Shown in pieces: positions 521-39,159 of a DNA stretch of 64,000 bases. The translations under genes were made by a program, and so were the position numbers. Position 1 is the first letter of the stretch; each line of letters begins with the position of its first letter. The notes beneath the pieces are model-generated. The model was not told the DNA's origin and made no database searches. It saw nothing but the letters and a program-made list of their open reading frames with translations. This DNA comes from a virus. Its lineage: Duplodnaviria; Heunggongvirae; Uroviricota; Caudoviricetes. The stretch lies in IMG/VR virus record IMGVR_UViG_3300013121_000008, positions 1 to 64,000 of that record. One strand, written 5' to 3'.

Positions 521-1732
521 TTAATTTTCCTTATCGTTTATATTTATTATTTCTAAATATAAATTTTCTATTTTATTTAAATCTGGTTTATCTGGAAGAA
601 TTGTTTTCTTTTCTTTAACTAATTGATAAAGATTATATTCTTTCTGTTTTCCAATCTCTAATAACTCATTAAAAGTCATTGAACCATTACGAATATCTTT
701 TAAGAATTTAGCTTTTTCTTCTGGTTGGCGAACATTAAAAGTTCCAGTAGTCAATAATTCTTCACATTGCATTAACAAACGCATTAAATGAAGACCATGC
801 TTACCATCAAAACCATAAGCAGCTTCTAATTCTGCTCTATCTTTGTTTCTATTTTCTTTCCAATTGAGAAATTGTTTATATTCTCTTTTGGCTCTGAAAT
901 AAGCTTTTTCTTTCTTTAGATAATCAGTAAACGAAGTTTCGAATCCTAATGTTTCGCTTAATTCATTAGATATATCTTCTTGTATTTCTATCCAATTGTT
1001 TAAATTGGGATCAAATTTAAATCCTTTATTATCCATTAAAGTAGCCAACAAAGCGGCAACTGAATAGAAAAACTTTTCTTTTGTTTCGTTTGTAGCATTT
1101 ACAAGCCAAGGAGAAATTTCTTCTAAGCTATTTGAAACAAAATTTATAACAGCTTGTAGTTCAGATTCGTTTAATGATTTTTCTGTTTCTAATAAACCGA
1201 AATCACTTCTGGTTGGAACTTTATCCCATTTTTCAATATTGTCTAAATATTTTTTATGAGTTTCAATTCTTTTTAATTGGCTAATAGCATAACCAGTGAA
1301 TGAATATAAAGCTCTATTAGATAGAAATAGATGTTTATTATTTCTAAGTAAATTAGATATTTTTTCATTATGGAAAACAACTAAATTATCTCCAGAAAAT
1401 AATATTTCAATTATATTTGGATTACATTCCGTAGCTAATTTAAAGAATTTTTCTAATGAGAACACAGTAGCTTCATAAAGTTTTTCTTTATCTTTAACTG
1501 TTTCACTTTCTCTACCTGATAATTCTTCAGATTTCCATATGGTTTGCTCAAAGTTTTTAAATAATCTATTTCTATAAGATAATGGAGGAATACATATCCC
1601 TCTATAATCCCAATCAGAGTTTTCTAAATTAGTTCCATAAGCTCTTGATCCACCTAAAACTAATAAAATAGTAGCTTTTTGTAAGTTAAATTCTTGAAAT
1701 GTTTTAGGCCAGTCAAAAGGTATATTATTCAT
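521..1732 (-). CDS. RlaP-like (PF10127-type) predicted nucleotidyltransferase
   Basis: N-terminal LVLGGSRAYGTNLENSDWDYRGI matches the G-S-x-A-Y-G-T...SD-x-D-x-RG signature of the RNA-repair-associated nucleotidyltransferase family; 403 aa ORF. Confidence 0.5.
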   Translation of the reverse strand: MNNIPFDWPKTFQEFNLQKATILLVLGGSRAYGTNLENSDWDYRGICIPPLSYRNRLFKNFEQTIWKSEELSGRESETVKDKEKLYEATVFSLEKFFKLATECNPNIIEILFSGDNLVVFHNEKISNLLRNNKHLFLSNRALYSFTGYAISQLKRIETHKKYLDNIEKWDKVPTRSDFGLLETEKSLNESELQAVINFVSNSLEEISPWLVNATNETKEKFFYSVAALLATLMDNKGFKFDPNLNNWIEIQEDISNELSETLGFETSFTDYLKKEKAYFRAKREYKQFLNWKENRNKDRAELEAAYGFDGKHGLHLMRLLMQCEELLTTGTFNVRQPEEKAKFLKDIRNGSMTFNELLEIGKQKEYNLYQLVKEKKTILPDKPDLNKIENLYLEIININDKEN

Positions 1733-3812: not shown

Positions 3813-4215
3813 TGAAATTTTTACCTCTAATATTCGATTGAATTTGACTTTTTTAATTATATGTTTATACCAATGATCAGTAGCCCAATCTAAAGATTCA
3901 TTAATAGAATATAATTTTGCGTCAATAATAAAAGAGCTAACAATTAATTCTTGTGTTTGGTTTTCTTTTCCGGTACAATAATAAATATTACCTTCTTAAT
4001 CTATTGTTTCTATTATATTTGCATAATGTATTTCTATTTTAGATCCTTAAAATTTAACTTGAGAGAGTCTAATCTTATAAGTGGAGTTTATCACTCTTGC
4101 CGATCTTATAAGTTTGTCTGATAGATGACATTGTCTGTAATTACTTTAGACTACATTTAATTTTTTCTCTCAAGTTTCTATAAATAAAGAATGCACTTTT
4201 ATTTATAGAAGTATA

Positions 4216-4296
4216 GCGGGAACAATGGGATTCGAACCCATGATGTTTTATTATTGATTTAGAATCAATCTTCTTCGACCTCTTGAATATATTCCC
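4216..4296 (-). tRNA. tRNA with anticodon CUA (candidate amber suppressor); CCA not encoded
   Basis: Minus-strand cloverleaf: acceptor GGGAATA/TGTTCCC, D-arm with GG, anticodon stem ATTGA/TCAAT with loop TTCTAAA (anticodon CTA), T-arm ATGGG-TTCGAAT-CCCAT. The 11-nt variable region is unusual. Confidence 0.45.
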
Positions 4297-4303
4297 TTAT
4301 AGG

Positions 4304-4438
4304 AAGGCATAACAGGATTCGAACCTGCGAAACATTCTAGTAATGTAGTTAATTTCCAATATATTTATAATTGAACTACTAGAATATCAATTATAAATAA
4401 TCTTAGTTAACTCTCTTTGACCTCTTGAATATATGCCT
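4304..4438 (-). ncRNA. tRNA-like element with ~55-nt insertion in the anticodon region (intron-containing tRNA or pseudogene)
   Basis: Perfect 7-bp acceptor (AGGCATA/TATGCCT) and T-arm GCAGG-TTCGAAT-CCTGT. The 5' part is near-identical to the tRNA at 4216-4296. The anticodon-stem halves GTTAA...TTAAC are separated by a long AT-rich hairpin. Confidence 0.3.
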
Positions 4439-4453: not shown

Positions 4454-4533
4454 TGGCAGGGGCGTCAGGATTCGAACCTAAGTCTTCTGTCTGTTTTGGA
4501 ATCAGAAATTCTGGACCACTGAACTACACCCCT
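4454..4533 (-). tRNA. tRNA-Trp(CCA), CCA encoded
   Basis: Acceptor AGGGGTG/CGCCCCT, D-arm GTTC-AGTGGTCCA-GAAT, anticodon loop TTCCAAA, T-loop TTCGAAT, 3' CCA. Confidence 0.55.
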
Positions 4534-4536
4534 ATT

Positions 4537-4612
4537 TGGAGCGGGAGACGGGACTCGAACCCGCGACCCTCAGCTTGGAAGGCTGATGCTCTACCAACTG
4601 AGCTACTCCCGC
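4537..4612 (-). tRNA. tRNA-Gly(TCC), CCA encoded
   Basis: GCGGGAG TA GCTCAGTTGGTAGAGC ... anticodon stem TCAGC/GCTGA with loop CTTCCAA; T-arm GCGGG-TTCGAGT-CCCGT; perfect acceptor. Confidence 0.65.
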
Positions 4613-4618
4613 AGAAGA

Positions 4619-4704
4619 TGGTGGGCAGAGGTGGATTCGAACCACCGTAGGCGTAAGCCGGCGGGTTTACAGCCCGCTCCCATTGGCCACTCGGGCATCT
4701 GCCC
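4619..4704 (-). tRNA. tRNA-Tyr(GTA), class II long variable arm, CCA encoded
   Basis: GGGCAGA TG CCCGAGTGGCCAATGGGAG CGGGCTGTAAACCCGC + long variable arm + GGTGG-TTCGAAT-CCACC + TCTGCCC-A-CCA. Confidence 0.7.
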
Positions 4705-5116: not shown

Positions 5117-5194
5117 TGGTGCCGATGACAGGATTTGAACCTGTGACCTATCGCTTACAAGGCGATTGCTCTGGCCAGACTGAGCTACAAGGGC
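5117..5194 (-). tRNA. tRNA-Thr(TGT)-like, CCA encoded (two acceptor-stem mismatches)
   Basis: D-arm GCTC-AGTCTGGCC-AGAGC, anticodon stem ATCGC/GCGAT with loop CTTGTAA, T-arm ACAGG-TTCAAAT-CCTGT. Acceptor GCCCTTG/CATCGGC has C-C and T-T mispairs. Confidence 0.45.
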
Positions 5195-5817
5195 GGTATT
5201 GTTATTGTTCCTTTTTCTTTAGCCAAAGATAATTTTCCTTGTGAATCTTCTAAAGTAATAGCTCCTTGTAGTTCTTTAAATTTTTGATAATCACTAGTTC
5301 TTACGGCTTTTTTCAATTTTTCTAATTCTTCTTCTCTTTCTTTTTCTCTTCTATTTTTTTCTTCTTCTAATACTCTTCTCGTTTTTACTGTATTAAAAAT
5401 TAAGAGCTTTAAATACCATTTAGAAACAAATATATTTTCAATTAATGTTCTAAGAGAAGGATTTTTACTTATTACTTCTATTGGAGGTTTTTCAATTTTA
5501 TTATATAGTTTATAAAAATCAGTATTATAAACTTTTTCTATATTTTTGAATATTATTCCATCGTGTTCTATATTTATAAATTCTTCTATTATTTTATAAG
5601 ACCCTGAAATTCTTAAAGAGGTTAAACCTTCAATTATTTCTCGTTCGGTTAAAAAATAATCATTATGTTCTTTTAAAGAGGGATTATATTTTTTCAATAA
5701 ATCCTCATAGGTATCTCTTTTTTCTACATTTCTAAATTCATCTGTAACACTAATTATTCCACTAATTAATAATATAAAAAAGGGAAGAGAAATTAAAGCT
5801 ATTATAATAGAAGTCAT
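5185..5817 (-). CDS. hypothetical membrane-anchored coiled-coil protein
   Basis: 210 aa ORF; N-terminal TM helix (IIIALISLPFFILLISGII) and K/E-rich C-terminus. Confidence 0.4.
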   Translation of the reverse strand: MTSIIIALISLPFFILLISGIISVTDEFRNVEKRDTYEDLLKKYNPSLKEHNDYFLTEREIIEGLTSLRISGSYKIIEEFINIEHDGIIFKNIEKVYNTDFYKLYNKIEKPPIEVISKNPSLRTLIENIFVSKWYLKLLIFNTVKTRRVLEEEKNRREKEREEELEKLKKAVRTSDYQKFKELQGAITLEDSQGKLSLAKEKGTITIPPL

Positions 5818-6193: not shown

Positions 6194-7591
6194 CTACATC
6201 ATATTTTCAAATTGATTTGAAACAATGATTCCTTTTAGTTGTTGATCTTTGTATAAGCCCCAAAAAAGTTCGCGCAACTTCTTTTCGTGAAAATCTACTA
6301 ATATTTTTTCACTCATTTTCTTGCATTTAACTTCTTCTGGCTCTTCACCTTCGTTACAAACAATACTAACTTTCTTGTTGGTGTAACGTTTTCCTGCACT
6401 AAAATCAATAACCTGGAGAATAGATAGACCATTCCAACGATGTCCCTCTTTTCTAACTCTAAAGTTATGGAAATTAATTTCTTTTAAGAAAAGATTCTGC
6501 ATCCAATTTCCAATCTTTTCAGCTTCCTTCAAAGATTTTGTAGATTCTTCATAAGAATTCTTCTTATAGAATATTTGTTTTTCTACTCCATCACTTTCGT
6601 AAGTGTAGGTATTGTAACACATGTTGAATTCATATTCTCCATTAGAATTTTGAATCATTCTAATTAAGTCAGAGTAATCTAATGTGTAATGCGGCCCGTC
6701 AATAGAATCTTTTTCTTGTAGGTCAAGAGGTTCTTCACCGTCAGTAACTGATTCTACTCTTTGCTTAGAGAATAAAGACCACCAACTATATTTATTTACT
6801 GCTTGGCAGAAACTAATAAAATCTTCACGCTCTAATGGAATATTCATTATTGGGAAACTTGCGTTGAAACCAATACTTAAAAGTCCAAGTAGTGAGAAAA
6901 TTAGACGTGCCTCTTCTTTAGCAACTTTTCGTTTGTGTTTAGAAGAAATAGTTTTAATTAACTTGTTGCCTAATTCTAAAGTTAAAGCAGAAGCTTTTTC
7001 TTTAACTTCTAAATCTTCATGTTTAACGAATTCTTGACCAATTTTTTCGGTCCAATTTGCAGGACATCCAATTTTAGTGTAACAAGGTACAGAAACTTCA
7101 ATTATGTATTTAACATATTTGTCAGTATTGTCACCCCAGAATTCTCTTAATTTTTCTATTCTTTCCACAAGTTTAGAAGAAATAGTAAACCAACGAATTA
7201 AATCAGAAGAAATGGTATGAGAGTAGTCGGTTACCATTTCAAAGTTTTGGCTTCTTAGTTCTTCGTCGCCATCGTTTTTATAGAATAGAATGACGCTTTT
7301 GTTAATTCTATTTTCAAGAAGATTAACGATTCTAGGTCCATATTCTCCTAATAGAATATTGAGGGTGTAAATAGAGTCTTCAAGAGCCATTGACATTCTT
7401 TCGTCGATTGGAGGTTTATTGACAATATTTTGCTCTTCTTTTTCGAGCATTTCTTGCCAACTGCCATATTCGGTACTTGAATCATCAAATTTTTCAATGT
7501 ATTTTGATTGGCCTTCGGTAAAAACAGTAAAACCAAGTTCGAAATCTTTGAAATCGATTCCGTTTGAAGCGTGAGGAATTAGTTCAATCAT
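6194..7591 (-). CDS. hypothetical protein (weak KxDG nucleotidyltransferase-like motif)
   Basis: 465 aa ORF. Contains ...ILFYKNDGDEEL... (K-x-D-G as in ligase motif I) at about residue 105 and a later ESDGVEKQIFYKKNSY segment. The similarity is speculative. Confidence 0.4.
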   Translation of the reverse strand: MIELIPHASNGIDFKDFELGFTVFTEGQSKYIEKFDDSSTEYGSWQEMLEKEEQNIVNKPPIDERMSMALEDSIYTLNILLGEYGPRIVNLLENRINKSVILFYKNDGDEELRSQNFEMVTDYSHTISSDLIRWFTISSKLVERIEKLREFWGDNTDKYVKYIIEVSVPCYTKIGCPANWTEKIGQEFVKHEDLEVKEKASALTLELGNKLIKTISSKHKRKVAKEEARLIFSLLGLLSIGFNASFPIMNIPLEREDFISFCQAVNKYSWWSLFSKQRVESVTDGEEPLDLQEKDSIDGPHYTLDYSDLIRMIQNSNGEYEFNMCYNTYTYESDGVEKQIFYKKNSYEESTKSLKEAEKIGNWMQNLFLKEINFHNFRVRKEGHRWNGLSILQVIDFSAGKRYTNKKVSIVCNEGEEPEEVKCKKMSEKILVDFHEKKLRELFWGLYKDQQLKGIIVSNQFENMM

Positions 7592-14405: not shown

Positions 14406-14481
14406 TGGCGGGAGAACATGGATTCGAACCAAGGACCCGCAGATTAACAATCTGCTGCTCTGCCTGCTGAGCTATACTCCC
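14406..14481 (-). tRNA. tRNA-Asn(GTT), CCA encoded
   Basis: GGGAGTA TA GCTCAGCAGGCAGAGC A GCAGATTGTTAATCTGC ... TTCGAAT ... CCA. Confidence 0.6.
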
Positions 14482-14879
14482 TAAGATAGATTTTCTCTAT
14501 TATTTAATAAAAATTCTTTTAACTTTTCTCTTGAATCTATATTATTTATCTTTAAAGCTTGGCTTAAAGGAAACCATGCCTCTTGTATTTTTACATATAC
14601 GGTTAGACCCTTAATTTTTGCCCAATCTCTTACTAAATTAGGCAAATAAACTCCATTATAGATTCTATCAGAACCGTATTCTGTTATTTTGCCGTATACA
14701 TTTGATTTATTAGTTCTTATTTCTACAATTCCATCTTTTAAGGCAGCTAAACAAATTAATCCTTCTGGATTATAAGTATCTGATTTTATAATATGGAAAA
14801 AGAATTGATCTTGACAAATAATGTTTAATGAATTATCTTCTATTAATTCAATCCATCTTTCAAATACATATTCATTCAT
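14481..14879 (-). CDS. hypothetical protein
   Basis: 132 aa ORF. Confidence 0.35.
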   Translation of the reverse strand: MNEYVFERWIELIEDNSLNIICQDQFFFHIIKSDTYNPEGLICLAALKDGIVEIRTNKSNVYGKITEYGSDRIYNGVYLPNLVRDWAKIKGLTVYVKIQEAWFPLSQALKINNIDSREKLKEFLLNNRENLS

Positions 14880-14910: not shown

Positions 14911-14987
14911 TGGTAATCCCAACGAGATTTGAACTCGTGCTACCGGGGTGAAGGCCCAGCGTTCTAACCTGGCTAAACTATAGGATC
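14911..14987 (-). tRNA. tRNA-Glu(TTC), CCA encoded
   Basis: GATCCTA TA GTTTAGCCAGGTTAGAAC G CTGGGCCTTCACCCCGG ... ACGAG-TTCAAAT-CTCGT-TGGGATT-A-CCA. Confidence 0.55.
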
Positions 14988-15407
14988 ATATTTTGTGATT
15001 TTATTCAATAATGGACAAATGTATTTTATGTTATCTTTTTTCTTATTTTCAAAATACCATACAATATAGTCCATTATAAAACTATCTAATTCGTTTATTA
15101 AGTTTTTTTGAAACATTAAACCTATAACTGCTTCAAAAATAGTTCCAATTGAATGTTCGCTGGTAATTGTGTATCTATCCATAATACTATTTTTAATTTT
15201 TAAGTCAGAGATAAATTGATTCATACTCTGATTACGAACTATTTCATCGTAAATAGTACCCTTTTCTTTTTCGAGTAGAGAAAGAAGAATTAATCTTACT
15301 TTGAGGTTTATATAGGAATCACCTAACCATGCTAAATCTTTTCTTTGGTTTCTGTTTGTTTTTTGTAATTCAGATAGATAAATCTCAAAATTTTTAAAGG
15401 TTTTCAT
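14973..15407 (-). CDS. mini-RNase III-like (ribonuclease III catalytic domain only)
   Basis: LAWLGDSYINLKVRLILL resembles the RNase III signature E-x-L-E-F-LGD; later FEAVIGLMF resembles FEALIGAIY; 144 aa, no dsRBD. Confidence 0.45.
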   Translation of the reverse strand: MKTFKNFEIYLSELQKTNRNQRKDLAWLGDSYINLKVRLILLSLLEKEKGTIYDEIVRNQSMNQFISDLKIKNSIMDRYTITSEHSIGTIFEAVIGLMFQKNLINELDSFIMDYIVWYFENKKKDNIKYICPLLNKITKYDPIV

Positions 15408-15966
15408 TTCCTTTTTCTTTTAGTTCGTTTCTAATTTTCATTAGAAGTATTCCAAGATGATTGGAACCCTTTCCGTTACATACTCCCCAGAAAGTATCTC
15501 CCCAGGTATTGCCTTCTATTAGTTTTGCGTCGCCAGTTTCCAAAAGCATTTTAGCCAGTTCGGTGTTTGGTGCAAATTTTTGACGAAGTAAATCTTCCAT
15601 TACTATAAGTCTACGACTATCCCAATCCTTAGAGGCATTAGTAAGCCCCTTTGGAGGAGCAGAACCTAATCTTTTAGCGAGGCCAGGAGAATCAACTTCT
15701 CTTATTCTTTTTCTTATAGCGGAGTCGTAAGATTTAGCAGCCTGATAGGCATGTTCAGTAGATGGATAGGTTTCGCCTTCGAATTCAACATCTACAAGAT
15801 GAAAATTAGAAAGAAATCTATATTTAAATCTAAAATCATCTATAACATTTGCTTTATTTTTCATTACTTCTTTTCTCGCCAATTCTTTTTCTTGATCAAT
15901 TAACTTATGTATTTCTTCTTTTGTAATTTTATCTTTCGACATTGATTTGTTTTCTATAGCGTTCAC
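15394..15966 (-). CDS. NADAR (YbiA-like, DUF1768) domain protein
   Basis: FLSNFHLVDVEFEGETYPSTEHAYQAAK...EGNTWGDTFWGVC...HLGILLMKIR matches the characteristic NADAR motifs. Confidence 0.75.
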   Translation of the reverse strand: MNAIENKSMSKDKITKEEIHKLIDQEKELARKEVMKNKANVIDDFRFKYRFLSNFHLVDVEFEGETYPSTEHAYQAAKSYDSAIRKRIREVDSPGLAKRLGSAPPKGLTNASKDWDSRRLIVMEDLLRQKFAPNTELAKMLLETGDAKLIEGNTWGDTFWGVCNGKGSNHLGILLMKIRNELKEKGNENL

Positions 15967-16216
15967 AATTTTTATTTGCGTTTTTACAAGGAATACAATC
16001 TATACTTGTACCTTGATAAGTAACAGTTATATAACAAATAACATCTTCGTTTACAACATTGTGTAAATCTACACGATTGTCTGATGCATTATTTACTCTA
16101 CCTAAATAATTACCAATTTTATCTGTAGATTGAAGACTGAATGCAGAAGTAGCATTTTGTGTAGGGACGCAAGAAGTTAAAATTAGAATTATGAATGCAA
16201 CGATAACATATTTCAT
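15929..16216 (-). CDS. hypothetical lipoprotein
   Basis: 95 aa; signal peptide ending in LTSC lipobox. Confidence 0.35.
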   Translation of the reverse strand: MKYVIVAFIILILTSCVPTQNATSAFSLQSTDKIGNYLGRVNNASDNRVDLHNVVNEDVICYITVTYQGTSIDCIPCKNANKNCERYRKQINVER

Positions 16217-16228
16217 TTTACAAACTCT

Positions 16229-16552
16229 TTAACTTAATTTATAATTATTAGCCATTAAAACCAAAGTCACAGCATGGCAAGGATTGGGAACACACCAGCA
16301 AATTAAATCTTTACCTTCTAATTTAGGTAATTCTTTAATTAATTCAGTTTGTCCATATAACCAATTTCGATGAGCTTCAACTGCTTCTTCTGGTGTTTTA
16401 ACTCTATTTTTAGCTAAGCCATAGTTTAAATGAGTAAAATTGTTTCCCCATTTACTAGGTCTTCCCACATAAATAGCATTTTTAGGAATGAATTTATCTG
16501 TTTTTTTATTATAGACTTTAATAGGACCTTTATTTGTTTCTATTATAATCAT
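16229..16552 (-). CDS. DUF4326-like protein
   Basis: YVGRPSKWGNNF ... LICWCVPNPCHA pattern typical of DUF4326, a family found in NAD/ADP-ribose gene contexts. Confidence 0.45.
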   Translation of the reverse strand: MIIIETNKGPIKVYNKKTDKFIPKNAIYVGRPSKWGNNFTHLNYGLAKNRVKTPEEAVEAHRNWLYGQTELIKELPKLEGKDLICWCVPNPCHAVTLVLMANNYKLS

Positions 16553-17085
16553 AAACTTCCTATATCTATATGTATTTTGTTAGGAGTAGTAGCCATATCC
16601 CAAGTATGTTTAGTTCCACCATCTTTAGGAATATTACCATTATTATAGGTTAAAGCTATTATGTATTGAGACTTAGCGACTCTACTGTTCCGAGCCTTAA
16701 ATCCAGGCCAATTACAAACGACAGCCTTTTGATCAATAGCCATCCACAATTGGAATAAAGAATCAACTCCCATATTATCTGAAAACTTTTTGTGGTAATA
16801 ATTAGATATTTCAGCATCTTTACTACCAACAAAACATCTTTTATCCATATCGAACTTAGCAGGTAAATGTAGAATAAGCTGTTTTGCAAATCCATTTAGA
16901 TACTGAATAACAGCAACATGGTCGGCCCAAGCTGCTCCACCAGATACTAATATTCTATCCTCTCTAGAACCAATATCACAAAGAATTTCATTTACCTTGA
17001 TATTCATCTTAGTAAAGACACCTTGATTTAACTTTGCGGCATCATCATTTCTTCCAGCAGTTCCAATGATAGAAATAGAAGTCAT
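16549..17085 (-). CDS. SLOG-superfamily (LOG/DprA-like Rossmann) protein, putative
   Basis: ISIIGTAGRND...ILVSGGAAWADHVAV resembles the nucleotide-binding motifs of LOG/SLOG proteins. Confidence 0.35.
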   Translation of the reverse strand: MTSISIIGTAGRNDDAAKLNQGVFTKMNIKVNEILCDIGSREDRILVSGGAAWADHVAVIQYLNGFAKQLILHLPAKFDMDKRCFVGSKDAEISNYYHKKFSDNMGVDSLFQLWMAIDQKAVVCNWPGFKARNSRVAKSQYIIALTYNNGNIPKDGGTKHTWDMATTPNKIHIDIGSL

Positions 17086-17238
17086 TTATGTCCTTACTCT
17101 TGATTAATAGGAAAACCAATTAGTTGTAACCATTTTGTAAAATAGATATATAATTATTCCAGCTATTATTGTATTGAGTAACATATATATAAAAAATATA
17201 GTTAACAATGTACTAGATATTGTCATTTGTTTTCCTCT

Positions 17239-17955
17239 TTATTTTTCTTTAAAAGTAGGCATTAACCAAAGACCACTATCGAAAAAGAATTCAGAATATT
17301 CGTGATCTATTTTATGCAGAGTTTTTAATGTTTTAACTGTATTGTAATTAAAACACTTGTATAATTCTTCTCTTATTCTTTCTTTTGATGTTGATTCTAA
17401 TTTAGGAATCCAATAAGAAGACTCAAAAAATACTTGGTTAAAGATTTCTTTTACAGGAATCAAATCTTTTGTAATCCAAAATCTTAGTGCCCTAATGATT
17501 CTAAGAGAATCTTCATTGAATCTTTTATTTAGATCGCCAACAGTTCTAAGCTGTTTATTATCGATGTCTATTAAACCATTATGAGGGTCTATATAGTTAC
17601 CTTGTTCATCTATAGCAATAGCGTTTACGGTGAAATCACGACGCGCTAAATCATCGAGTATAGTACCCGAATTTACATAATCAGGTCTTCTACCATCGGT
17701 ATAAGGTCCATCTATACGACAATAGACATAATCTACTGCTCCCATTTTAGGATGTAAAGCTCTAATTGTAAAATATTCGTCATTGATTAAGTATATTTCA
17801 TTATATTTACGAATATACTCTTTCATTTCTTCCCAGGAAGGAGCTTCAACTGCAAAATCTATATCTTTAGATTTTATCCCTAATATTTGGTCTCTTACAG
17901 AGCCACCAACTTGATATATTTTAATAGACATTTTTACTCTTGTTGGCAAGAACAT
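17239..17955 (-). CDS. tRNA nucleotidyltransferase (CCA-adding enzyme) head domain
   Basis: IYQVGGSVRDQILGIKSKDIDFAV is the Pol-beta-type GG-x-VRD...D-x-D signature of CCA-adding enzymes / poly(A) polymerases; 238 aa. Confidence 0.6.
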   Translation of the reverse strand: MFLPTRVKMSIKIYQVGGSVRDQILGIKSKDIDFAVEAPSWEEMKEYIRKYNEIYLINDEYFTIRALHPKMGAVDYVYCRIDGPYTDGRRPDYVNSGTILDDLARRDFTVNAIAIDEQGNYIDPHNGLIDIDNKQLRTVGDLNKRFNEDSLRIIRALRFWITKDLIPVKEIFNQVFFESSYWIPKLESTSKERIREELYKCFNYNTVKTLKTLHKIDHEYSEFFFDSGLWLMPTFKEK

Positions 17956-18146
17956 TCTCTTCTATCAGCATAATATCTGTAAGGTCCTTTGCAAAGTTCT
18001 AAACATTTTTGTTCTTGTTGTTGATGCATTTCATCATTAGTTTTTATATACGAACAAACATTAGGAACAAATATAATAAAAGCTGTTAAAATTGATATTA
18101 TTAAAATATTCCCCCTATCCAAAATAATTTCAAATATACGAATCAT
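17934..18146 (-). CDS. hypothetical small membrane Cys-rich protein
   Basis: 70 aa ORF. Confidence 0.3.
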   Translation of the reverse strand: MIRIFEIILDRGNILIISILTAFIIFVPNVCSYIKTNDEMHQQQEQKCLELCKGPYRYYADRRECSCQQE

Positions 18147-18169
18147 TTTGTTTCCTTTTTAAATTAAAG

Positions 18170-18246
18170 TGGTGTATCCGGAGGGACTTGAACCCACAAC
18201 CTACAGGGTAGAAACCTGTTGCTCTATCCAATTGAGCTACGGATAC
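18170..18246 (-). tRNA. tRNA-Arg(TCT), CCA encoded
   Basis: GTATCCG TA GCTCAATTGGATAGAGC A ACAGGTTTCTACCCTGT ... GTGGG-TTCAAGT-CCCTC-CGGATAC-A-CCA; perfect acceptor. Confidence 0.65.
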
Positions 18247-18553
18247 TTAATTATGGCCTAGGAAATCACCATACGCTGCGTTTCTCCTTTCGACAGGGTT
18301 TTCGCCTGCTTGTGATTGGGAGCATCCAACCTACGTTCTTCAGAATGCTAATTTTCGTGGAATTATGAAAATAAAAAAATAAAAAAACTCCACTATCTTT
18401 GAACGGCGAATTACAGTTATCCAATTTTTGCTTTATGAATCAGGATAATTGGCAATCCTGTTTATATTCGACGGTGCAATTTACCCAACCGTGACGGGCT
18501 CAGTCTTTCCTGAGAGTCAAGGGGCGACTTCCGCCGCCCTCCACCACTTCCGA

Positions 18554-18919
18554 TTACTCGGGAAGCTCAACATCTGGAGTAGAAGTTGCAGAAGACTGAC
18601 CAGCAGGATGGGCAACAAAGAGAGGAATGCCAACGACAAGCCACTCAGTAATGTACACATCATTGTCTGCGCCTTCAGGTCGCCACTTTCGAGTCTGGGG
18701 ACGAAGACTCATACTAAAGGCATCACCCTTGCTGTACTTATTGATGAATCCAGCCTGGGACTCCCAAAAGACAACTCGGAAGGCAGTCGGAGGATTATCG
18801 TCACCGCTGTTCACGAGGAAGGTACAAGTGGCACAACGCTTACCAGAGGTGGTGTCGCGAAGTTCGGGGTCAGCGGCTAACCGCGCATTGAACAGATGAA
18901 GCATAGCAGAGCTAATCAT
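18554..18919 (-). CDS. ssb: single-stranded DNA-binding protein (OB-fold SSB); GC-elevated
   Basis: Aligns with bacterial SSB: LHLFNARLAADPELRDTTSGKRCATCTFLV ... AFRVVFWESQAGFINKYSKGDAFSMSLRPQTRKW ... DVYITEWLV (compare E. coli ...VYIEGQLRTRKW...). The ORF as tracked starts at a TTG; the ATG at 18919 is the likelier start. Confidence 0.65.
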   Translation of the reverse strand: MISSAMLHLFNARLAADPELRDTTSGKRCATCTFLVNSGDDNPPTAFRVVFWESQAGFINKYSKGDAFSMSLRPQTRKWRPEGADNDVYITEWLVVGIPLFVAHPAGQSSATSTPDVELPE

Positions 18920-18944
18920 TTTATTTCTCCTTAATTTACTTAAT

Positions 18945-20459
18945 TTACTTGCCGAAATTGACAATTTTTTCCTTCAATTCATCAGACAAAACGTGGGGAT
19001 ACCAAGAAGGACGAGCATCCCATTCACGATCCAAACGCTCTCGCATTTCACTAAAATCTTCGAACTTGTACTCAACAGGACCAAAATCCCAAACGGTTTC
19101 AAGTAAGTTATGAGTATCTATAATATGGTCACGCCAAGTAGAAGAAGTTTCAGGATATACACTAATTCCATTTCCACGATTGTAAACAGTCAGTCGGCCA
19201 GGAAGAGAATTCTTTAGAGGGTCAGTCTTAGGAGTCTTACGAATATCATAACGAATATTGTTTAGAACTCGCTCTGAAACCTTCGATGCAACCTTCAGGC
19301 TATCTCGATTCTGCTTCTGAAGCAACCCACCGCCCATACCGTATGCAACATTCTGAGCGGAAAACTGCATAGACTCTACAGCATCAGCAATCCTAAAGAG
19401 TTCAGTGATATCGATACCATCACCCTGAATGACCGCAGCACCATCAAGAACCATGAATCCCTTGCTGTTTACTCGGAAACCGAAATGCTTCTTGAGATAG
19501 TGAAGTCCGTTCTCAACACAAGCGATTGGGTCACCAGAGTCAGGACGAGCTACGAAAAGAATATTCTTTTGCTTTGCAAGACGAACAATATCAGGAGGAA
19601 GATTTCGAAGACATTCATCGTAATCACGACTATCTGCAACGAAACTACAGATACAGTTTTCAGGAAGCTTCTTAAGAATTGCTCGCATAGCTTCATAGTC
19701 GCTAAAGTATGAAGTCATAACAGAGTGCTCAGAAGCGTAAACAGAAAAACCTACAGGCTTATCGTTGTTCCAACGCTTTCCAATCCAAGCGGCAGGAAGA
19801 GTGTCAGTTCCCTCAAAAGTAAGCAGATGAGCAAGACCAGTTACCATAGCAGTTTCAACAGAGCTTACGCCTCGATAACCGAAATCGTGAAGACGAGAGC
19901 GAAGTAGAAACATCAAATCGTCTTCAACACTATTCTTAAACTTTTCGCGAAGATACTGATAAACAATACGAGACTTAGTAGCCGTAGTAGTTGCGGACCA
20001 GGCGTGAGTCCAAGTACCTTCGAAATAAGTGATTAGGTCTTCAAATCCATCAGCAGCCTGAATCTGAAGTAGAGGAACATGGGGGTAAACAACAGAGCCG
20101 TCACGAACCATTTGAATCTTGAAAGGCAGATAGCCACCTTCATTAACTACTCGCTGAAAAAGCTCACGAGGCCACATGTAAGGCTGACTACCAACGTGAT
20201 GGTCCTTCCAAACATAATCAGCTTCGTCAATATCTTGCTGAGTAATTCGGCGTGAAATTAGAGTATCGAAAATGTAGCGGAAACCAGAGGCAACGATACG
20301 ATGGTCATTCGTTACTTCGGGAAGAGGTCCACGAGCTTCCATATAAGCACTAAATTCATCAGCTTCGTTAAGCATGAAAAAGTGTCCACCCTTATAACTA
20401 TCAGTCCGAAGGAGGAAAGGAACATCATAAACATTACTACGAGTAGGAAAAGGATACAT
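18945..20459 (-). CDS. nadV: nicotinamide phosphoribosyltransferase (NAMPT/NadV)
   Basis: N-terminal LLRTDSYKGGHF is the NAMPT TDSYK signature; 504 aa, the usual size. Confidence 0.8.
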   Translation of the reverse strand: MYPFPTRSNVYDVPFLLRTDSYKGGHFFMLNEADEFSAYMEARGPLPEVTNDHRIVASGFRYIFDTLISRRITQQDIDEADYVWKDHHVGSQPYMWPRELFQRVVNEGGYLPFKIQMVRDGSVVYPHVPLLQIQAADGFEDLITYFEGTWTHAWSATTTATKSRIVYQYLREKFKNSVEDDLMFLLRSRLHDFGYRGVSSVETAMVTGLAHLLTFEGTDTLPAAWIGKRWNNDKPVGFSVYASEHSVMTSYFSDYEAMRAILKKLPENCICSFVADSRDYDECLRNLPPDIVRLAKQKNILFVARPDSGDPIACVENGLHYLKKHFGFRVNSKGFMVLDGAAVIQGDGIDITELFRIADAVESMQFSAQNVAYGMGGGLLQKQNRDSLKVASKVSERVLNNIRYDIRKTPKTDPLKNSLPGRLTVYNRGNGISVYPETSSTWRDHIIDTHNLLETVWDFGPVEYKFEDFSEMRERLDREWDARPSWYPHVLSDELKEKIVNFGK

Positions 20460-20476
20460 TTTTTTATTTCCTTAAT

Positions 20477-21511
20477 TTAAGTTAATTTTTCATTAAAATA
20501 CATATAGTTGATTATGTCTAGATGGTCTTCATGTACTAAACCAATCTTTGAAAATCTCCATATGTCATAGTAGTCGAACCAAGCGACAGCGATAGCATCG
20601 TCTCCTGCTCTTACCTCACTCACGTCAAAAGAATCTTCTAATTCAAACAGAAAAGCTTTACTTGTTTTTCTATTGGGACTTCTTCCTGGACTATCGAAAT
20701 CTTGAATTTTCTTAACCATATTGACAGTTAAAGATAAGTTAGTTTCTTCCTTCAATTCACGAAGGATTCCATTTACATATCTTTCATCAGCGTTTAGATG
20801 ACCACCCGGAAGTGCCAGTTTTCCATTATCTTCTCTTTTAACCGTTAGTATCTTATTTTTATAAACCACAACAGCATCAACACAAGGGAATATTGGATCC
20901 CAAGGCATATATTTATTATCTTTACTTCTTACGATACTGTATTCGTTTTTCTTTTCCATTTGAGCCAAATAATCTTTATGGGAATAATTTGTATTAAATG
21001 GATCAGAGGAACACAATATAGAATAAGTGCTGTTTGGAACCTTATTTATTAGGTAATGAAGTTGTTGATGGAAAATATAAGGTCTTAAATCAGAAGCATG
21101 GAAATCCGACTTGTGTTCCTTAAAAACCTTTTTCCAGTTAGGAAATAAATTCAGATAATAACTACTATCATCAGAATGCGTTCCTATTAGAGTAAAGTAA
21201 TTGCCAAACAATTCATTCGAAACAGCTCGATAGATTTCAAATTCCCACATTCTGTCGGAATAAGGATAATCGTTTGCGTGAATGAAATAAATTGGCTTAT
21301 TAGATATTGTACTCCAATAATCACTAATCATCTGTTCGCGCTGCGCGATTGAGAAAGGATTTTTGAAATCAATTCGATTACAAGACCCTAAAACTACAAT
21401 TAAATACTTATATTTAGCAGCTTCTATAAATAGATGTAGGTGATTATTGTGAAGAGGCTGGAACCTACCAATAATTACAGCAACACTATTGCTTTCTACT
21501 TCGTTAATCAT
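20477..21511 (-). CDS. natV: bifunctional NMN adenylyltransferase / Nudix hydrolase (NatV/NadM-Nudix)
   Basis: N-terminal VIIGRFQPLHNNH (nucleotidyltransferase motif); C-terminal Nudix box LPGGHLNADERYVNGILRELKEETNL. Confidence 0.75.
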   Translation of the reverse strand: MINEVESNSVAVIIGRFQPLHNNHLHLFIEAAKYKYLIVVLGSCNRIDFKNPFSIAQREQMISDYWSTISNKPIYFIHANDYPYSDRMWEFEIYRAVSNELFGNYFTLIGTHSDDSSYYLNLFPNWKKVFKEHKSDFHASDLRPYIFHQQLHYLINKVPNSTYSILCSSDPFNTNYSHKDYLAQMEKKNEYSIVRSKDNKYMPWDPIFPCVDAVVVYKNKILTVKREDNGKLALPGGHLNADERYVNGILRELKEETNLSLTVNMVKKIQDFDSPGRSPNRKTSKAFLFELEDSFDVSEVRAGDDAIAVAWFDYYDIWRFSKIGLVHEDHLDIINYMYFNEKLT

Positions 21512-27002: not shown

Positions 27003-27091
27003 TATTTAAGTACCGAAAGTAAGATTCGAACTTACATCTACGAGGTAAGATTGGATACTCACTGGCATGTATATAATAACCCAATTATATG
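27003..27091 (-). ncRNA. tRNA-like element (canonical acceptor + T-arm, aberrant core)
   Basis: Perfect acceptor ACCGAAA/TTTCGGT and T-arm GTAAG-TTCGAAT-CTTAC, but no canonical anticodon arm could be folded by eye. Confidence 0.3.
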
Positions 27092-27514
27092 ATTTCGGTT
27101 CATATGAATTTAACTAAACTTGTGGAACAGTTAAATTATATTTAGCTGCAATTTTTTTTCATTCTTTCTTGCCAACTAATTACACCAATTTTCATATCGA
27201 TATCATGTGCGTTTTGAAGACTCATCAATAAATCTTCATCAATTCCTTCTAAAGAAGAAGGAAAAAGTTTAGCCTCCCACAACTAGAAGATTAAGATTAT
27301 ATAGTAGAAGGACCTATATATGGAAGAAGAGACTTATATGGAAATGGAAGAAAGACCTGGTATCTCCCCTCTATAAAAATATTTTTTTCCTATATCTCGC
27401 GTAATAGATAAAGGCTTTTTTACTTCATTTTTGTACCTACATAGAATCCAATCATGTAAGTAATGAAACCCATTAGAAAGTATACAGTGAAGGTAGTCAT
27501 TTTTATTTATTCCT

Positions 27515-28060: not shown

Positions 28061-28135
28061 TGGTGTATGCAGCAGGATTCGAACCTACGTTTCCTTGCGG
28101 GTGCAAGGTGTCCTAGTCCTCTAGACGATACATAC
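28061..28135 (-). tRNA. tRNA-like (Gly/Glu-type body, aberrant 6-nt anticodon loop); possible pseudogene
   Basis: Acceptor GTATGTA/TGCATAC, D-arm GTCTAGAGGACTAGGAC, T-arm GTAGG-TTCGAAT-CCTGC. The anticodon stem CCTTG/CAAGG encloses only 6 nt. Confidence 0.35.
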
Positions 28136-29897: not shown

Positions 29898-30239
29898 TGG
29901 TGCCCCGAGCGGGACTTGAACCCGCACGATCTTTTAATCGGAAGATTTTCGTCCCAACTATTGCTTTCGCAACTAAGATAATGGTAATCTTATTTGTGGG
30001 CTGGACTATGCCTTCACCCTTCTCATTGAGTTAGGGTGCGCTCCGTCTAGTCTCTACACTTTTCTTAGGGAAATTAATGTCTAAATATACTTATGACGAA
30101 GATAGTCTTCGTGAAAACCTAAGACTTAGCTCGGCGTTGTCATTTCAGATTTCACCGAATTTGAAGCGATTCACATATGAAATTTCTTTCATAGTGCTCA
30201 ATTTATAAGTCTCCCGCGTCTACCATTCCGCCACCAGGG
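29898..30239 (-). tRNA. trnL: tRNA-Leu(TAA) interrupted by a group I intron in the anticodon loop (exons 30207..30239 and 29898..29949)
   Basis: The 5' exon reads GCCCTGG TG GCGGAATGGTAGACGCG GGAGA CTT (ends at U34). The 3' exon reads AAAATCTTC + variable stem-loop CGATTAAAAGATCG + GCGGG-TTCAAGT-CCCGC + TCGGGGC-A-CCA. The acceptor pairs perfectly and the spliced anticodon loop would be CTTAAAA. Confidence 0.6.
29950..30206 (-). ncRNA. group I intron (tRNA-Leu(UAA) anticodon-loop type, cyanobacterial/plastid-like)
   Basis: About 257 nt inserted between anticodon positions 34/35. The 5' end is ATAAATTGAGCACTATGAAAGAAATT and the 3' end is ...GGGACG (terminal G). Core elements AGTGTAGAGACTAGACGGAGCGCACCCTAAC and GAAGGCATAGTCCAGCC resemble the conserved R/S (P7/P3) elements of trnL(UAA) group I introns as recalled from memory. 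A GCGAAAGC GNRA-loop lies near the 3' end. Confidence 0.55.
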
Positions 30240-35074: not shown

Positions 35075-36142
35075 TTACTGGGTTTCCTGTCGGTACTCCC
35101 AGTTCTCCATCTCCAGTCGCTGCCAGTCAGCCTTCTCGCGAACGAAGAGGGCGCTCCAGGGGGTTTTGAGTGAAGTAGGGGCATCGATGCCCAGTTCCTC
35201 ACCCTGACGCTCCTTGAGGGCCTCCAGACGCTCCAACGAAGCCATGGCGTAGATATACTGCTTGATGCAGTACAGCTTGGAGGACTTGGGGTTCTTGCTT
35301 CCCATCTCCTGCCATTCGTACCAGAAGATGGTACGAAACCAACCAGAAAGCTCCTTCTTCTTCGTCGGAGTCAGAGTCCCGTTGATCTCTTTCAGCAGCG
35401 TCACCATGGGCGCATTGTTGAACTCGATCCAGCGGCCATCTTCGAATCGTCCGTTCTGCCCCACACTGTAGGCCAGAGAGAAGATTGGCTCCATGTTGAT
35501 GGATTCCCCAGCGGCCTCGTTGATGGAACGAATCTTCTTCGCCATCGTCACGAAGTTGTCCAGCTCTCCTCGCACCTTCTTCCAGATCTTTCGACCCTTG
35601 AATGTGGGAGACTTGTTTCCGAAGACGGCCAGGATCCAGGACTTGATGCCCCGAATCGCCATCTCGTACTTGTAGGTGGCCTTGTCGACCTCCTCGTCAG
35701 TGAACGTACCCACGAATTCGAGAACGTCCTCGTCTCCGGTGATGACGGTCTTGATTCGCTCGAAGTCCGCATCGAGGGAGACGAGTTTGTCCTCCATCTC
35801 CCATTCCTGCATCTTGGACGCCCAGAAGCACGCCCGACGAAGGAACATTTCTTCCGGAGAGTCCTTGCTCCAGTGATTCGTCCCGATCTCGCCACCATCG
35901 CCGCTCTTTCGAACGGGGATGATGTTCCCGTCCTTGTCCTTGAGCGCGACCTTGTGGATAATTCCGTTCTTGTCAGGAACGTTCTTGTGGTACGCGCAGA
36001 CCTGAAGGATCGACTGCAGGTCCATGTTGTGCCAGTCGGGCAGGTCGCCTAGAGCGTCAGTTCGCTCGGACGTATCCTCCACTACGGACCCCATCTCCAG
36101 CTTGTCCTCGTGTTCGTTCTCGACTTCGACTTCGATTTCCAT
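35075..36142 (-). CDS. hypothetical protein, paralog family A/B (with 39160..40524)
   Basis: 355 aa; shares LPDW..M.L..I..VC...DG....P..D..GN.IPVRK and downstream blocks with the 454-aa ORF; preceded by SD AGGAGACA. Confidence 0.55.
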   Translation of the reverse strand: MEIEVEVENEHEDKLEMGSVVEDTSERTDALGDLPDWHNMDLQSILQVCAYHKNVPDKNGIIHKVALKDKDGNIIPVRKSGDGGEIGTNHWSKDSPEEMFLRRACFWASKMQEWEMEDKLVSLDADFERIKTVITGDEDVLEFVGTFTDEEVDKATYKYEMAIRGIKSWILAVFGNKSPTFKGRKIWKKVRGELDNFVTMAKKIRSINEAAGESINMEPIFSLAYSVGQNGRFEDGRWIEFNNAPMVTLLKEINGTLTPTKKKELSGWFRTIFWYEWQEMGSKNPKSSKLYCIKQYIYAMASLERLEALKERQGEELGIDAPTSLKTPWSALFVREKADWQRLEMENWEYRQETQ

Positions 36143-36555
36143 CGCTGTCTCCTGTGAAATTGTTATGTGCCACGGCTTTTACTTTGAAAACCCTCCTGCA
36201 CATTCTCCAATGGGACTTGAACCTTTGTCTTTATGGAGTTTTCGCCTGAGTATGCATCCCAGGCCCAAGAACTCTTCTTTACTTGCTTAAGGTAAAGATC
36301 TATCTTGGTTATATTTCTTTTGCAGGTTTTGTTGATTACATTTGTCCTGCACTCAACGAGTATTGATTTTCAACATCCCGTCAAAGTCTATTTCGTAACC
36401 AATTAAACTGAAGACTGAAATAAACTAAATATCTTCAGAGTGTTGTCTTTCGCGTGGTTCTTTGCCTTCAGGCTGGTTGCCCACCAAAGATACTCTACTG
36501 GCTAGTCGTTTGACCTTTGTAGAGGTTATCGTTATTTCCTCCTGTGACTAGTTGA

Positions 36556-36894
36556 CTAGTAGCGGGCGTGAACGTAGAAGTCCACGACCCTCACGATGGT
36601 GCCCTCCGGAAGTGAGAGGATGTCGACATCGGCGTTCGAGATGCTTTCGTGGAGCTTGATGGAGACGAGGGCCTTGGCCAGCTGGGCGTTGTGCTTCCCG
36701 ACGGTGAAATCGGTGATGCAGGATGGCTCCTGACCCGGTTCGGTGACGATGTAGTCCTCGACGTTCTCGGGCACCAAGTTGCCGGAGTAGCAGGTCTTTC
36801 GGAAGACGCGCCGGCTGGGACGAGACGGAACCTTGACGGTGATGATGGTGGTGGTGGTCAGCGTGGGCTTGAGCTTGGACATATTTTTCTCCAC
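36556..36894 (-). CDS. hypothetical protein
   Basis: 112 aa; SD GAGGTGGAG upstream of ATG. Confidence 0.45.
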   Translation of the reverse strand: MEKNMSKLKPTLTTTTIITVKVPSRPSRRVFRKTCYSGNLVPENVEDYIVTEPGQEPSCITDFTVGKHNAQLAKALVSIKLHESISNADVDILSLPEGTIVRVVDFYVHARY

Positions 36895-37682
36895 CTCTAC
36901 TTTAACTTGGTCGATTCATTCAAACCAAGTAGTGGCCTAGGATTTCGCACCACTTTATTTTGTAGATTAACCGTATTGTTTGACGGGCGGCAGCTCTACA
37001 TTCTGTTATTTTTGTTTTTTCTATTATTTTTTATTTTTGGGGCTTAGCTTTCTATCTCCATCGTCCACTTGGATTGCTATACTTAATTATGTATTGAGTA
37101 CGTGGGTTCTTTACCTTACAATTCATTGGGCCCGGGTTCTCAGATGAACTTACTCAGCGCTAAGTAAGTGCTGCTCCACCTTCGCTCACAGCTTCCCCGA
37201 CTTCGCTTGGCACCCAAAACATTAACCTATCAGTTTACTGAAAACTACCACAAACTAACTAACGAATGGCTGATCGCATTATGCTCTCCGATTATCGTTG
37301 AAGTTATTCCCTGAAAAAACTTAGTCTCTTTGAAATCCAATTAAAAAAGAAACTAGTCCATGGCACACCTCCAAGTTACTATTAGTTAGCAGCTACGTTA
37401 ATCTATTAGCCCCTACAGTGCCGATCATTGGGGTTCGGAGGTTATTTAGCCACGGGGCACTCTGTAGCTACATCCCGTAGTAGCAGTAGTCGATTCGCCC
37501 CAGGATGTTCTGGATGACGATGCCATCCTTCATCGTCCCGCCGCAAACCTTTCCACTGATGATTTCGTTGAAGTCATCGTCTACTCCATCTTTTTTTTGT
37601 AAGTCCCGCTAACCCCTTCAGTTCCCCTAACCTTAGAAGCTAAACTTACTTACTGACACAATAAAAACAATCAATAAAATAA

Positions 37683-37810
37683 TAAGAGAAGGTATTTAGG
37701 TATTTAGAAGGTCTTTTAGGTATTTAAAGGTGATTATAGGTATTTGAGGTAGTTTAGGTATTTGAGGGTGATTAGGGTATTTTGGGTATTTAAAGGTATT
37801 TTGGTATTTG
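37683..37810. repeat. tandem iteron-like repeats (GGTATTT core, ~10 copies at 11-12 bp spacing)
   Basis: AGGTATTTAGGTATTTAGAAGGTCTTTTAGGTATTTAAAGGTGATTATAGGTATTTGAGGTAGTTTAGGTATTTGAGGGTGATTAGGGTATTTTGGGTATTTAAAGGTATTTTGGTATTTG, located in a roughly 0.9 kb ORF-free gap. Confidence 0.6.
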
Positions 37811-38068
37811 TTTCGAAGTGGGGCGTATGCCCCTAAACCGAAAAAAGAAAGTAAAAGAAAAAGGGAGGATCTCTCCTCCCTCTTTCAGTGTGCCTACCGC
37901 TCGGCAAGCACGATGTACGTCGTATCCGGATATTCGATGATATCCCACCACCACTTGCGGCGGTTATACGTAGCCATGAACGACTCCAGAGAGCCTTCCC
38001 AGTTCATCTCACCACCCTTGTACATGATCACGATCTTCATGATTGGCTCCTATGCATACGGAATGTAT

Positions 38069-38108
38069 GCATTTAAAAAGGAAATGGCCCCGAAGGGCCA
38101 AATCCTAG
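38069..38108 (-). promoter_or_regulatory. island cassette copy 1: stop-proximal GC hairpin (GGCCCTTCGGGGCC) + TTTCCTTTTTAAATG box
   Basis: Plus strand CATTTAAAAAGGAAATGGCCCCGAAGGGCCAAATCCTAG; on the coding strand it is followed by the second hairpin TGCATAC..GTATGCA, SD and ATG. Confidence 0.55.
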
Positions 38109-38112
38109 AGTT

Positions 38113-38343
38113 CTAGTAGACGTAGGACTGCGAACCCTCCATCAAATACTCCTCCAACTCACCGCAAGCATTGTTGCTCCATCCCTTGCTCCCGAGGAGA
38201 TAGAGGACGCCGTTCACCTTGACCCTAACGATGTGGGGGTCCGCGAACAGCCTCGCGATCCCAGAGGGATGCATCTCCCTCTTCTCGATCCCTTCGTAGA
38301 CCACGCTATCCTGGATGAACGAGTACATGTAAGACACCTTGAA
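38113..38343 (-). CDS. hypothetical protein
   Basis: The ATG at 38343 is preferred (AGGAGG 5 nt upstream) over the ORF-track start at 38364. Confidence 0.4.
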   Translation of the reverse strand, partial: FKVSYMYSFIQDSVVYEGIEKREMHPSGIARLFADPHIVRVKVNGVLYLLGSKGWSNNACGELEEYLMEGSQSYVY

Positions 38344-38373
38344 CATTCTACCTCCTATGAGCATGATTGCTCA

Positions 38374-38410: not shown

Positions 38411-38418
38411 TCGTCTCG

Positions 38419-39121: not shown

Positions 39122-39159
39122 AATTTCTTCACCCCTTATAGCTCAGGGGGTCACGAGTT

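Follow-up and report, generated by a model that had tools for sequence, protein, structure and literature searches.

A structurally competent candidate amber-suppressor tRNA in an uncultured AT-rich jumbo phage whose visible genes use the standard genetic code

The minus-strand gene at positions 4216..4296 of the phage DNA analysed here encodes a tRNA with the anticodon CUA that is, as a structure, a competent candidate amber suppressor. The DNA is a stretch of 64 kb, referred to below as the window, from a source contig of ~158 kb; the other 94 kb (~59%), probably including the lysis and tail-fibre genes, lie outside it. The explanation that we favour, with confidence that is about even, is that a structurally competent amber suppressor is carried by a jumbo phage with the standard genetic code and AT-rich genes that end in TAA.

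The preliminary description had proposed a tRNA-shaped gene at this location with a 7-nt anticodon loop, TTCTAAA, in which U33 and A37 are in place and the anticodon is CUA. It had named a tRNA-calling program as a check, and ARAGORN found 15 tRNA genes in the 64-kb window, all on the minus strand, and assigned the anticodon cta to exactly 4216-4296. The Rfam tRNA family RF00005 matched 4217-4296(-) over the full model with 58.5 bits (gathering score 29) and E = 4.5e-10 when the entire window and all families are counted, and zero non-canonical pairs were flagged in the alignment. This score ranks tenth among the 15 tRNAs, above the Glu, Leu, Tyr and Trp tRNAs of the window. Both the sequence and the Rfam alignment bear out the proposed loop (UUCUAAA, 4258..4264, minus strand): read from 4264 to 4258 it holds the anticodon C-U-A at 4262-4260 together with U33, A37 and A38, and the A36-A37-A38 context is typical for tRNAs that read codons starting with U.

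The tRNA is 81 nt long with a GC content of 37%. Its 5' half reads GGGAAUA UA UUCA AGAGGUCGA AGAA G AUUGA UUCUAAA UCAAU and its 3' half continues after UCAAU with AAUAAAACAUC AUGGG UUCGAAU CCCAU UGUUCCC G. All 20 stem pairs are standard; the acceptor stem (GGGAAUA/UGUUCCC) has 7 bp with one G-U pair, the anticodon stem (AUUGA/UCAAU) has 5 bp, the T arm is AUGGG-UUCGAAU-CCCAU and the D loop contains G18-G19. When the bases were read off the sequence and set against standard tRNA architecture, those for the U8-A14, G15-C48, G18/G19-T-loop, G26-A44 and U54-A58 contacts were all present. The gene therefore has what RF00005 expects of an elongator tRNA, namely the acceptor and anticodon stems, U33, the T loop, G18-G19 and a score above the gathering threshold, and it has the CUA anticodon in a canonical loop that marks an amber suppressor. 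The preliminary description had found the 11-nt variable region atypical and had wondered whether the fold itself was mistaken. The region is indeed 11 nt long (AAUAAAACAUC) and unpaired, but it is real, and the suspicion of a mis-fold did not hold. The cloverleaf is also the fold of minimum free energy. The tRNA has no long paired variable arm of the class II type, while the 3-bp D stem (UUC/GAA) with its A13-A22 mismatch does agree with class II. The discriminator is G73, and it is followed by CUA, not by an encoded CCA.

ARAGORN labels the gene 'tRNA-Pyl', which is its name for any CUA anticodon. A pyrrolysine tRNA has a 6-bp anticodon stem, a 3-nt variable loop and a very small D loop without G18-G19. 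The anticodon and the automatic label are the only points in favour of that identity, and the structure refutes it: the anticodon stem has 5 bp, the D loop is large and contains G18-G19, the T loop is UUCGAAU and the variable loop has 11 nt. Furthermore, no family for pyrrolysine biosynthesis (pylBCD) or for PylS was present among the Pfam matches of the 85 window ORFs, and we give a pyrrolysine tRNA next to no probability.

The CUA tRNA is the last gene of a tight, head-to-tail cluster of five on the minus strand, in the order Tyr(GUA), Gly(UCC), Trp(CCA), a Ser-like gene and the CUA tRNA, with spacers of 6, 3, 15 and about 2-5 nt. The Tyr, Gly and Trp genes (4454..4704) are GC-rich and encode CCA. 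The fourth gene (4302..4438, minus), characterised by ARAGORN in intron mode, by folding and by alignment, is a class-II tRNA-Ser-like gene that is AT-rich and without CCA. With introns allowed, ARAGORN places in its anticodon loop a 47-nt insertion, which folds as a 13-bp hairpin with UUCUAG in the hairpin loop and falls far below the length of a group I intron; the splice position is ambiguous, giving an anticodon of either AGA or GGA. The Ser-like gene retains a paired long variable arm, and its D arm aligns nearly identically with that of the CUA tRNA; the two genes are probably paralogues.

Beginning 7 nt past the CUA tRNA, an AT-rich minus-strand hairpin of 12-13 bp (4177..4209), identified by folding, marks where the cluster ends. 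The hairpin lacks a U-tract, and Rfam scans at E<=10 returned no ribozyme match there, HDV-like or otherwise. Just downstream of the tRNA and the hairpin, ~120 nt at 4056-4176 (minus) form a four-way-junction structure closed by an 11-bp helix (AACUUGAGAGA/UCUCUCAAGUU); the 226-nt fold gives z = -2.6, and the structure is not matched by any Rfam family. The gene neighbours of the CUA tRNA have no Pfam or PHROG function except for an RlaP-type nucleotidyltransferase (521-1732, minus).

The 14 canonical tRNAs of the window have 49-65% GC and all 14 encode CCA. AT-rich tRNA-like genes without CCA number three, namely the CUA tRNA (37% GC), its Ser-like neighbour (29%) and a gene at 27011-27099 (35%). 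The last of these, on the minus strand, scores 36 bits with RF00005 and has good acceptor, D and T arms, with 32 nt in place of the 17-nt anticodon arm, one possible fold of which has an 8-nt loop (UAUCCAAU); it is missed by ARAGORN. A further oddity is a Glu-like tRNA at 28061-28135 (minus), which encodes CCA and has a 6-nt anticodon loop (or a 6-bp stem and a 4-nt loop), so that ARAGORN reports the 2-base 'anticodon' cc.

That the CUA tRNA is one of three AT-rich genes without CCA, the other two having grossly altered anticodon arms, counts against a suppressor, since such a group could be decaying or non-translational. It may be, then, that there is no working suppressor and that the gene is either a decaying class-II tRNA paralogue or a tRNA-like RNA with another role, for example as a decoy against host nucleases that target tRNA, or as a processing signal. 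We consider this unlikely, if far from negligible. The gene is an AT-rich orphan without CCA beside 14 GC-rich tRNAs that encode it, and among the neighbouring and related tRNA-like genes are one with an insertion of 47 nt, one with 32 nt in the anticodon region and one with a loop of 6 nt. In addition, its variable arm has collapsed to 11 unpaired nt, and its folding energy is not significantly better than that of shuffled sequence (z = -1.26). Against decay, the stems, the 7-nt loop with U33, A37 and A38, the T loop and the bases for the tertiary contacts have all stayed intact despite the drift to 37% GC; four canonical tRNAs of the window score lower than it does with RF00005, and it sits in a tight cluster of canonical tRNAs. 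The suppressor function that we favour is that of a candidate, for which the position in the cluster and a phage-encoded CCA-adding enzyme argue indirectly. The enzyme, a tRNA nucleotidyltransferase with a CCA-adding enzyme head domain (17239..17955, minus; Pfam PF01743, 3e-24; also PHROG), is likely to be a maturation factor for tRNAs without encoded CCA.

In a BLAST search against phages, the CUA tRNA had just one significant match, 33/38 nt (E = 1e-3), which spans the D arm and the anticodon arm of a tRNA-Tyr(GUA) on a gut phage scaffold. The anticodon stem of that tRNA is identical to ours, and its loop, CUGUAAA, differs at two positions, one of which is the change from G34 to C in the anticodon. 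A match to Lak-A2 at the same level was rejected since it is not a tRNA. The exact 44-nt pattern of the CUA tRNA was absent from the viral and metagenome contigs, and two degenerate patterns gave zero matches in the viral contigs; the two metagenome matches to the degenerate pattern were dismissed as chance, since they lie inside coding sequence and not in a tRNA. No homologue was therefore found in the collections searched (viral contigs, metagenome contigs and phages). When the CUA tRNA, the Ser-like gene and the gut-phage tRNA-Tyr were aligned, 98% of the pair cells were standard and 11/20 pairs had changed on both sides, showing an intact cloverleaf as expected among tRNAs. The CUA tRNA looks like a derivative of a class-II (Ser/Tyr-type) tRNA that lost its variable stem.

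The canonical tRNA-Tyr of the cluster (4619-4704, minus) is identical at 79-80/86 nt to tRNA-Tyr in contigs of ~67-73% GC from Pseudomonadota, Myxococcota and other proteobacterial MAGs, and at 77/86 to that in Actinomycetota contigs (~60-63% GC). These similarities are consistent with a GC-rich bacterial host for this phage of ~30% GC, with no lineage resolved; a host lineage cannot be taken from this tRNA because its 35-nt core is common to several GC-rich phyla.

The inserted residue cannot be read from the ancestry of the CUA tRNA, since G73 opposes TyrRS and the variable arm for SerRS is missing. By E. coli rules, G73 is an antideterminant for both TyrRS and LeuRS, SerRS depends on the long variable arm, and GlnRS recognises U35, the discriminator base and the pairs 2-71 and 3-70; tRNAs for Trp, fMet, Ser, Asn and Lys come to insert glutamine when they are turned into amber derivatives (PMC9976931). 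The bases U35, G73, G2-C71 and G3-C70 of the CUA tRNA suit GlnRS, and therefore glutamine would be the most plausible amino acid under these rules, with serine second; the paired long variable arm wanted by SerRS is missing. The tRNA also has a strong G1-C72 pair and U10-A25; with these and an unpaired 11-nt variable loop it is the ideal substrate of no synthetase, which counts against the suppressor reading.

The source is a tailed, AT-rich jumbo phage of roughly 158 kb; two proteins of the window are recorded as encoded by one JGI contig of 158,130 bp. From 43.5 kb onward the plus strand encodes the portal, the major head protein, the tail sheath and a T4-type large terminase (46913-49117). 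The terminase shares at most 27% identity with those of isolates, the nearest being the jumbo phages MTATph1, ME3 and 0305phi8-36, and 40-55% with those of many metagenomic contigs of 150-200 kb; judged by its sequence, the phage belongs to a family related to nothing cultured. The minus strand from 0-28 kb encodes NAMPT, a NadR-like NUDIX/cytidylyltransferase, NADAR, a Macro domain, the RlaP nucleotidyltransferase, a SpoU methylase, RNase III, SSB and the short CCA-adding enzyme; the Macro-domain, SpoU-methylase and RNase III assignments are family matches to window ORFs. NAMPT, the NadR-like protein, NADAR and the CCA-adding enzyme lie within 15394-21511 (minus), and the RlaP-type enzyme is at 521-1732 (minus). 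Taken with the three family matches, this set for NAD and RNA repair suggests countermeasures to host defences that deplete NAD or target tRNA. Elsewhere, a group I intron-like element at 29982-30216 (minus) matches the full model with 46.7 bits (gathering score 50; E about 5e-10) and has a recognisable P7/P3 core; the surrounding 28-34 kb are poor in ORFs and have about 45% GC.

A CUA tRNA in a phage raises the question of whether TAG is recoded. The preliminary description, which linked the tRNA to phages that recode TAG, had itself seen no long ORF interrupted by an in-frame TAG in the window, and on the coding strands this proved correct. In the AT-rich regions no ORFs on the coding strands are bridged when TAG is read as sense; the few candidate bridges span tRNA genes or join coincidental neighbours. 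An apparent chain of plus-strand ORFs with TAG as sense at 28-43.5 kb was discarded, since these are antisense shadows of GC3-rich genes on the minus strand. Under code 11 the structural module from terminase to sheath (43.5-63.9 kb) has a coding density of 98.4%, its 6,672 codons include no in-frame TAG, and terminase, portal, major capsid and sheath are intact; between 1 and 27.1 kb, 83% of the DNA is covered by ORFs of >=60 aa and tRNAs. Comparing ORFs under codes 15 and 11, as the preliminary description had proposed, thus shows that code 11 suffices in the window. Moreover, TAG is the genuine stop of at least 10 window genes with ribosome-binding sites and their own terminators, namely nine of ten GC3-rich cassette genes and 6194-7591, each followed by a terminator. 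No release factor, including RF2, or aminoacyl-tRNA synthetase family was found among the Pfam matches of the 85 window ORFs; such accessory genes are optional in code 15 phages. In three relatives with terminases 49-51% identical, the gene order from SNase to terminase to capsid is conserved, the structural-module genes are intact in code 11 and TAG ends 1 to 5 genes per locus. Reassignment of TGA was also rejected, since TGA stops are found in ATGA start/stop overlaps. The link to TAG recoding therefore fails in the window, and the visible genes use the ordinary genetic code.

Stop-codon usage, which the preliminary description had also suggested comparing, shows a preference for TAA and no TAG-specific depletion in the window. 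In one AT-rich region (region A) the stops are TAA 23, TAG 4 and TGA 2. In the structural module all 18 of 18 are TAA, where composition predicts 60% (P about 1e-4); since TGA is equally absent there, the absence of TAG is a preference for TAA. Three of the four TAG stops in region A fall within, or directly adjoin, the 5' end of the tRNA gene that follows, where they are the UAG of the U8-A9-G10 region of the tRNA, and therefore processing of the co-transcript by RNase P would remove the stop codon of the mRNA. The ORFs concerned, 5185-5817, 14481-14879 and 14973-15407, have their TAG in or at downstream Thr, Asn and Glu tRNA genes, the sites being 5185-5194, 14481 and 14973-14987.

A partial reassignment of TAG, similar to code 15, might still affect a few late genes, such as those for lysis and tail fibres, in the 94 kb outside the window. 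We regard this as distinctly unlikely. Recoded phages show a strong association with suppressor tRNAs, and the route proposed for recoding is by low GC and scarce TAG and TGA stops (10.1101/2021.08.26.457843); this phage is very AT-rich, its late genes show the TAA excess just described, and most of its genome lies beyond the window. But structural genes are where recoded phages usually carry recoded codons (10.1101/2021.08.26.457843), and here those genes are intact in code 11, as they are in the same module of the three relatives. The working TAG stops and the lack of an RF2 or synthetase gene among the ORFs examined also argue against recoding, as does the body of the CUA tRNA, which differs from the Gln type of the Lak phage CUA tRNAs.

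Nine of the TAG stops of the window belong to a block of ten GC3-rich genes at 35075-42685 (minus). These genes combine a GC3 of 0.69-0.92 with GGAG ribosome-binding sites, and each has its own GC-hairpin terminator, after which comes a TTTYCTTTTAACTG-like motif; the GC3 of the phage's other genes is about 0.2. Their ORFs gave zero Pfam matches. The same pattern of GC3-rich genes occurs in L035, L007:228-3751 and L009:513-833. Two of the genes, 35075-36142 and 39160-40494 (minus), encode paralogous proteins with no assigned function that share the N-terminal motif PDW..M.L..IL.VC...K.G.I......D..GN.IPVRK; the databases yielded a single relative, a protein of 82% identity encoded on a contig of 3.9 kb. 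Among the cassettes, at 37687-37809, there is also a tandem array of ~13 copies of a 9-bp unit (AAGGTATTT) with higher-order periods of 19/38 bp, which could be an iteron or promoter array.

The two gene sets differ sharply in codon usage: in the GC3-rich versus the AT-rich set, AGA is used 1 versus 232 times, TTA 0 versus 320, ATA 3 versus 204 and AAA 8 versus 384. The phage tRNAs, including Lys-UUU (x2), Arg-UCU, Ile-UAU, Gln-UUG, Glu-UUC, Thr-UGU and Gly-UCC, suit the AT-rich set and match codons that the cassettes avoid. This suggests that the GC3-rich block is an early gene set read by host tRNAs, in an AT-rich phage of a GC-rich host.

TAG ends 9/10 of the cassette genes against 4/47 of the AT-rich genes, and a temporal switch could be built on this difference, in which the CUA tRNA, made along with the other phage tRNAs, would drive ribosomes through the TAG stops of the GC3-rich cassettes and of host genes. 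Some ribosomes would then reach terminators without an in-frame stop, leading to non-stop messages and degradation tagging, while middle and late genes ending in TAA would be immune. Such a switch seems quite improbable to us. In its favour, 7/8 genes end in TAG in the close relative L035, a 3.9-kb contig from SRR28338213 with 85-93% nucleotide identity to the block (38-42 kb), and in 4/9 TAG-ending cassettes the readthrough frame runs to or past the U-tract of the terminator before the next stop; the fit of the phage tRNAs to the codons avoided by the cassettes also agrees with it. However, the third-position composition of the cassettes (G3 = 0.42, A3 = 0.06) alone predicts 82% TAG, with P(9 or more of 10) = 0.45, so that the pattern is real but needs no suppressor, and we rejected the enrichment as a link to the CUA tRNA. 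Readthrough would append 2-27 residues, 5/9 cassettes have a back-up stop within 2-7 codons, and the GC3-rich genes of a more distant relative have mixed stops (TGA 3, TAA 2, TAG 1). The fuller form of this idea supposes two translational regimes, one of GC3-rich (0.7-0.92) TAG cassettes served by host tRNAs and the other of AT-rich (GC3 about 0.2) TAA genes served by phage tRNAs, with the CUA tRNA as the switch that would read through or destabilise TAG-ending early and host messages and spare late genes; we hold it to be a long shot.

The reading that we favour, a suppressor in a phage with the standard code, would work as follows. The CUA tRNA would be co-transcribed with tRNA-Tyr, tRNA-Gly, tRNA-Trp and the Ser-like gene, its precursor would be trimmed, and CCA would be added with the help of the phage's CCA-adding enzyme. 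Charged by a host synthetase, it would then compete with RF1 at UAG. The phage could tolerate such a suppressor, since nearly all of its AT-rich middle and late genes have TAA as their stop, which would limit readthrough to the minority of messages terminated by TAG, those of host genes and of the GC3-rich cassettes. As the preliminary description had suggested, the tRNA may act on other loci or on host messages. Against this reading count the finding that immediate back-up stops are not enriched behind TAG-terminated genes, the failure to find a homologue of the tRNA in the collections searched, and the ~59% of the genome beyond the window.

The nearest counterpart may be Xanthomonas phage XacN1, which has two CUA tRNAs and the standard code, and in which in silico TAG readthrough gave no targets (PMC5852040). 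Both are large phages with many tRNA genes, tRNA-processing enzymes and a CUA tRNA, and in neither does in silico readthrough of TAG yield a target. The two have no sequence relationship, however, and the CUA tRNA described here is an AT-rich outlier without CCA and with an unpaired 11-nt variable loop. With the code 15 phages (crAss-like, Lak and other clades; 10.1101/2021.08.26.457843) this phage shares a CUA tRNA, low GC and stops dominated by TAA, and the amino acid that we would predict, glutamine, would be the same. Those phages are defined by in-frame TAG in structural and lysis genes; here none was found in the 64-kb window (of 158 kb), and TAG is used as a real stop. The Lak CUA tRNAs have Gln-type bodies with U1-A72 and a short variable loop, whereas the present body is class-II-like. 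Suppressor tRNAs have also been seen in standard-code relatives of recoded phages without reassigned codons (10.1101/2021.08.26.457843). The theta (HDV-like) ribozyme-linked suppressor tRNAs of gut phages (PMC10879173) resemble ours in being phage suppressor tRNAs with an unusual 3' context; here the Rfam scans at E<=10 matched no ribozyme downstream of the tRNA, where the AT-rich hairpin and then the unclassified ~120-nt structure lie. The CUA tRNA can also be set beside suppressors of cellular origin. Classical amber suppressors of E. coli arose from class-II tRNAs, supD from tRNA-Ser and supF from tRNA-Tyr. The CUA tRNA resembles these in its class-II-like D arm (3 bp and the 13:22 mismatch) and in the A36-A37-A38 loop context, but differs from them in having G73, the antideterminant for TyrRS (PMC9976931), and in lacking the long paired variable arm of the SerRS type.

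Amber-suppressor tRNAs of phages are already well documented, both with and without recoding. What is new here is an environmental, uncultured addition to the unexplained phages that carry amber suppressors with the standard code, distinguished by an unusual class-II-derived tRNA body and a notable genomic setting. More surprising than the CUA tRNA itself are the two opposite codon-usage regimes that one phage combines and the group of tRNA-like genes whose anticodon arms carry insertions or deletions. A suppressor tRNA in a phage is usually read as a flag for stop reassignment, upon which annotators switch to code 15. This case shows that the flag can mislead, since a sound CUA tRNA lies beside structural genes in the standard code and working TAG terminators. 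The amino acid and the targets of the tRNA, if determined, would bear on whether such suppressors are a pre-adaptation to recoding, a tool against the host or a tolerated accident.
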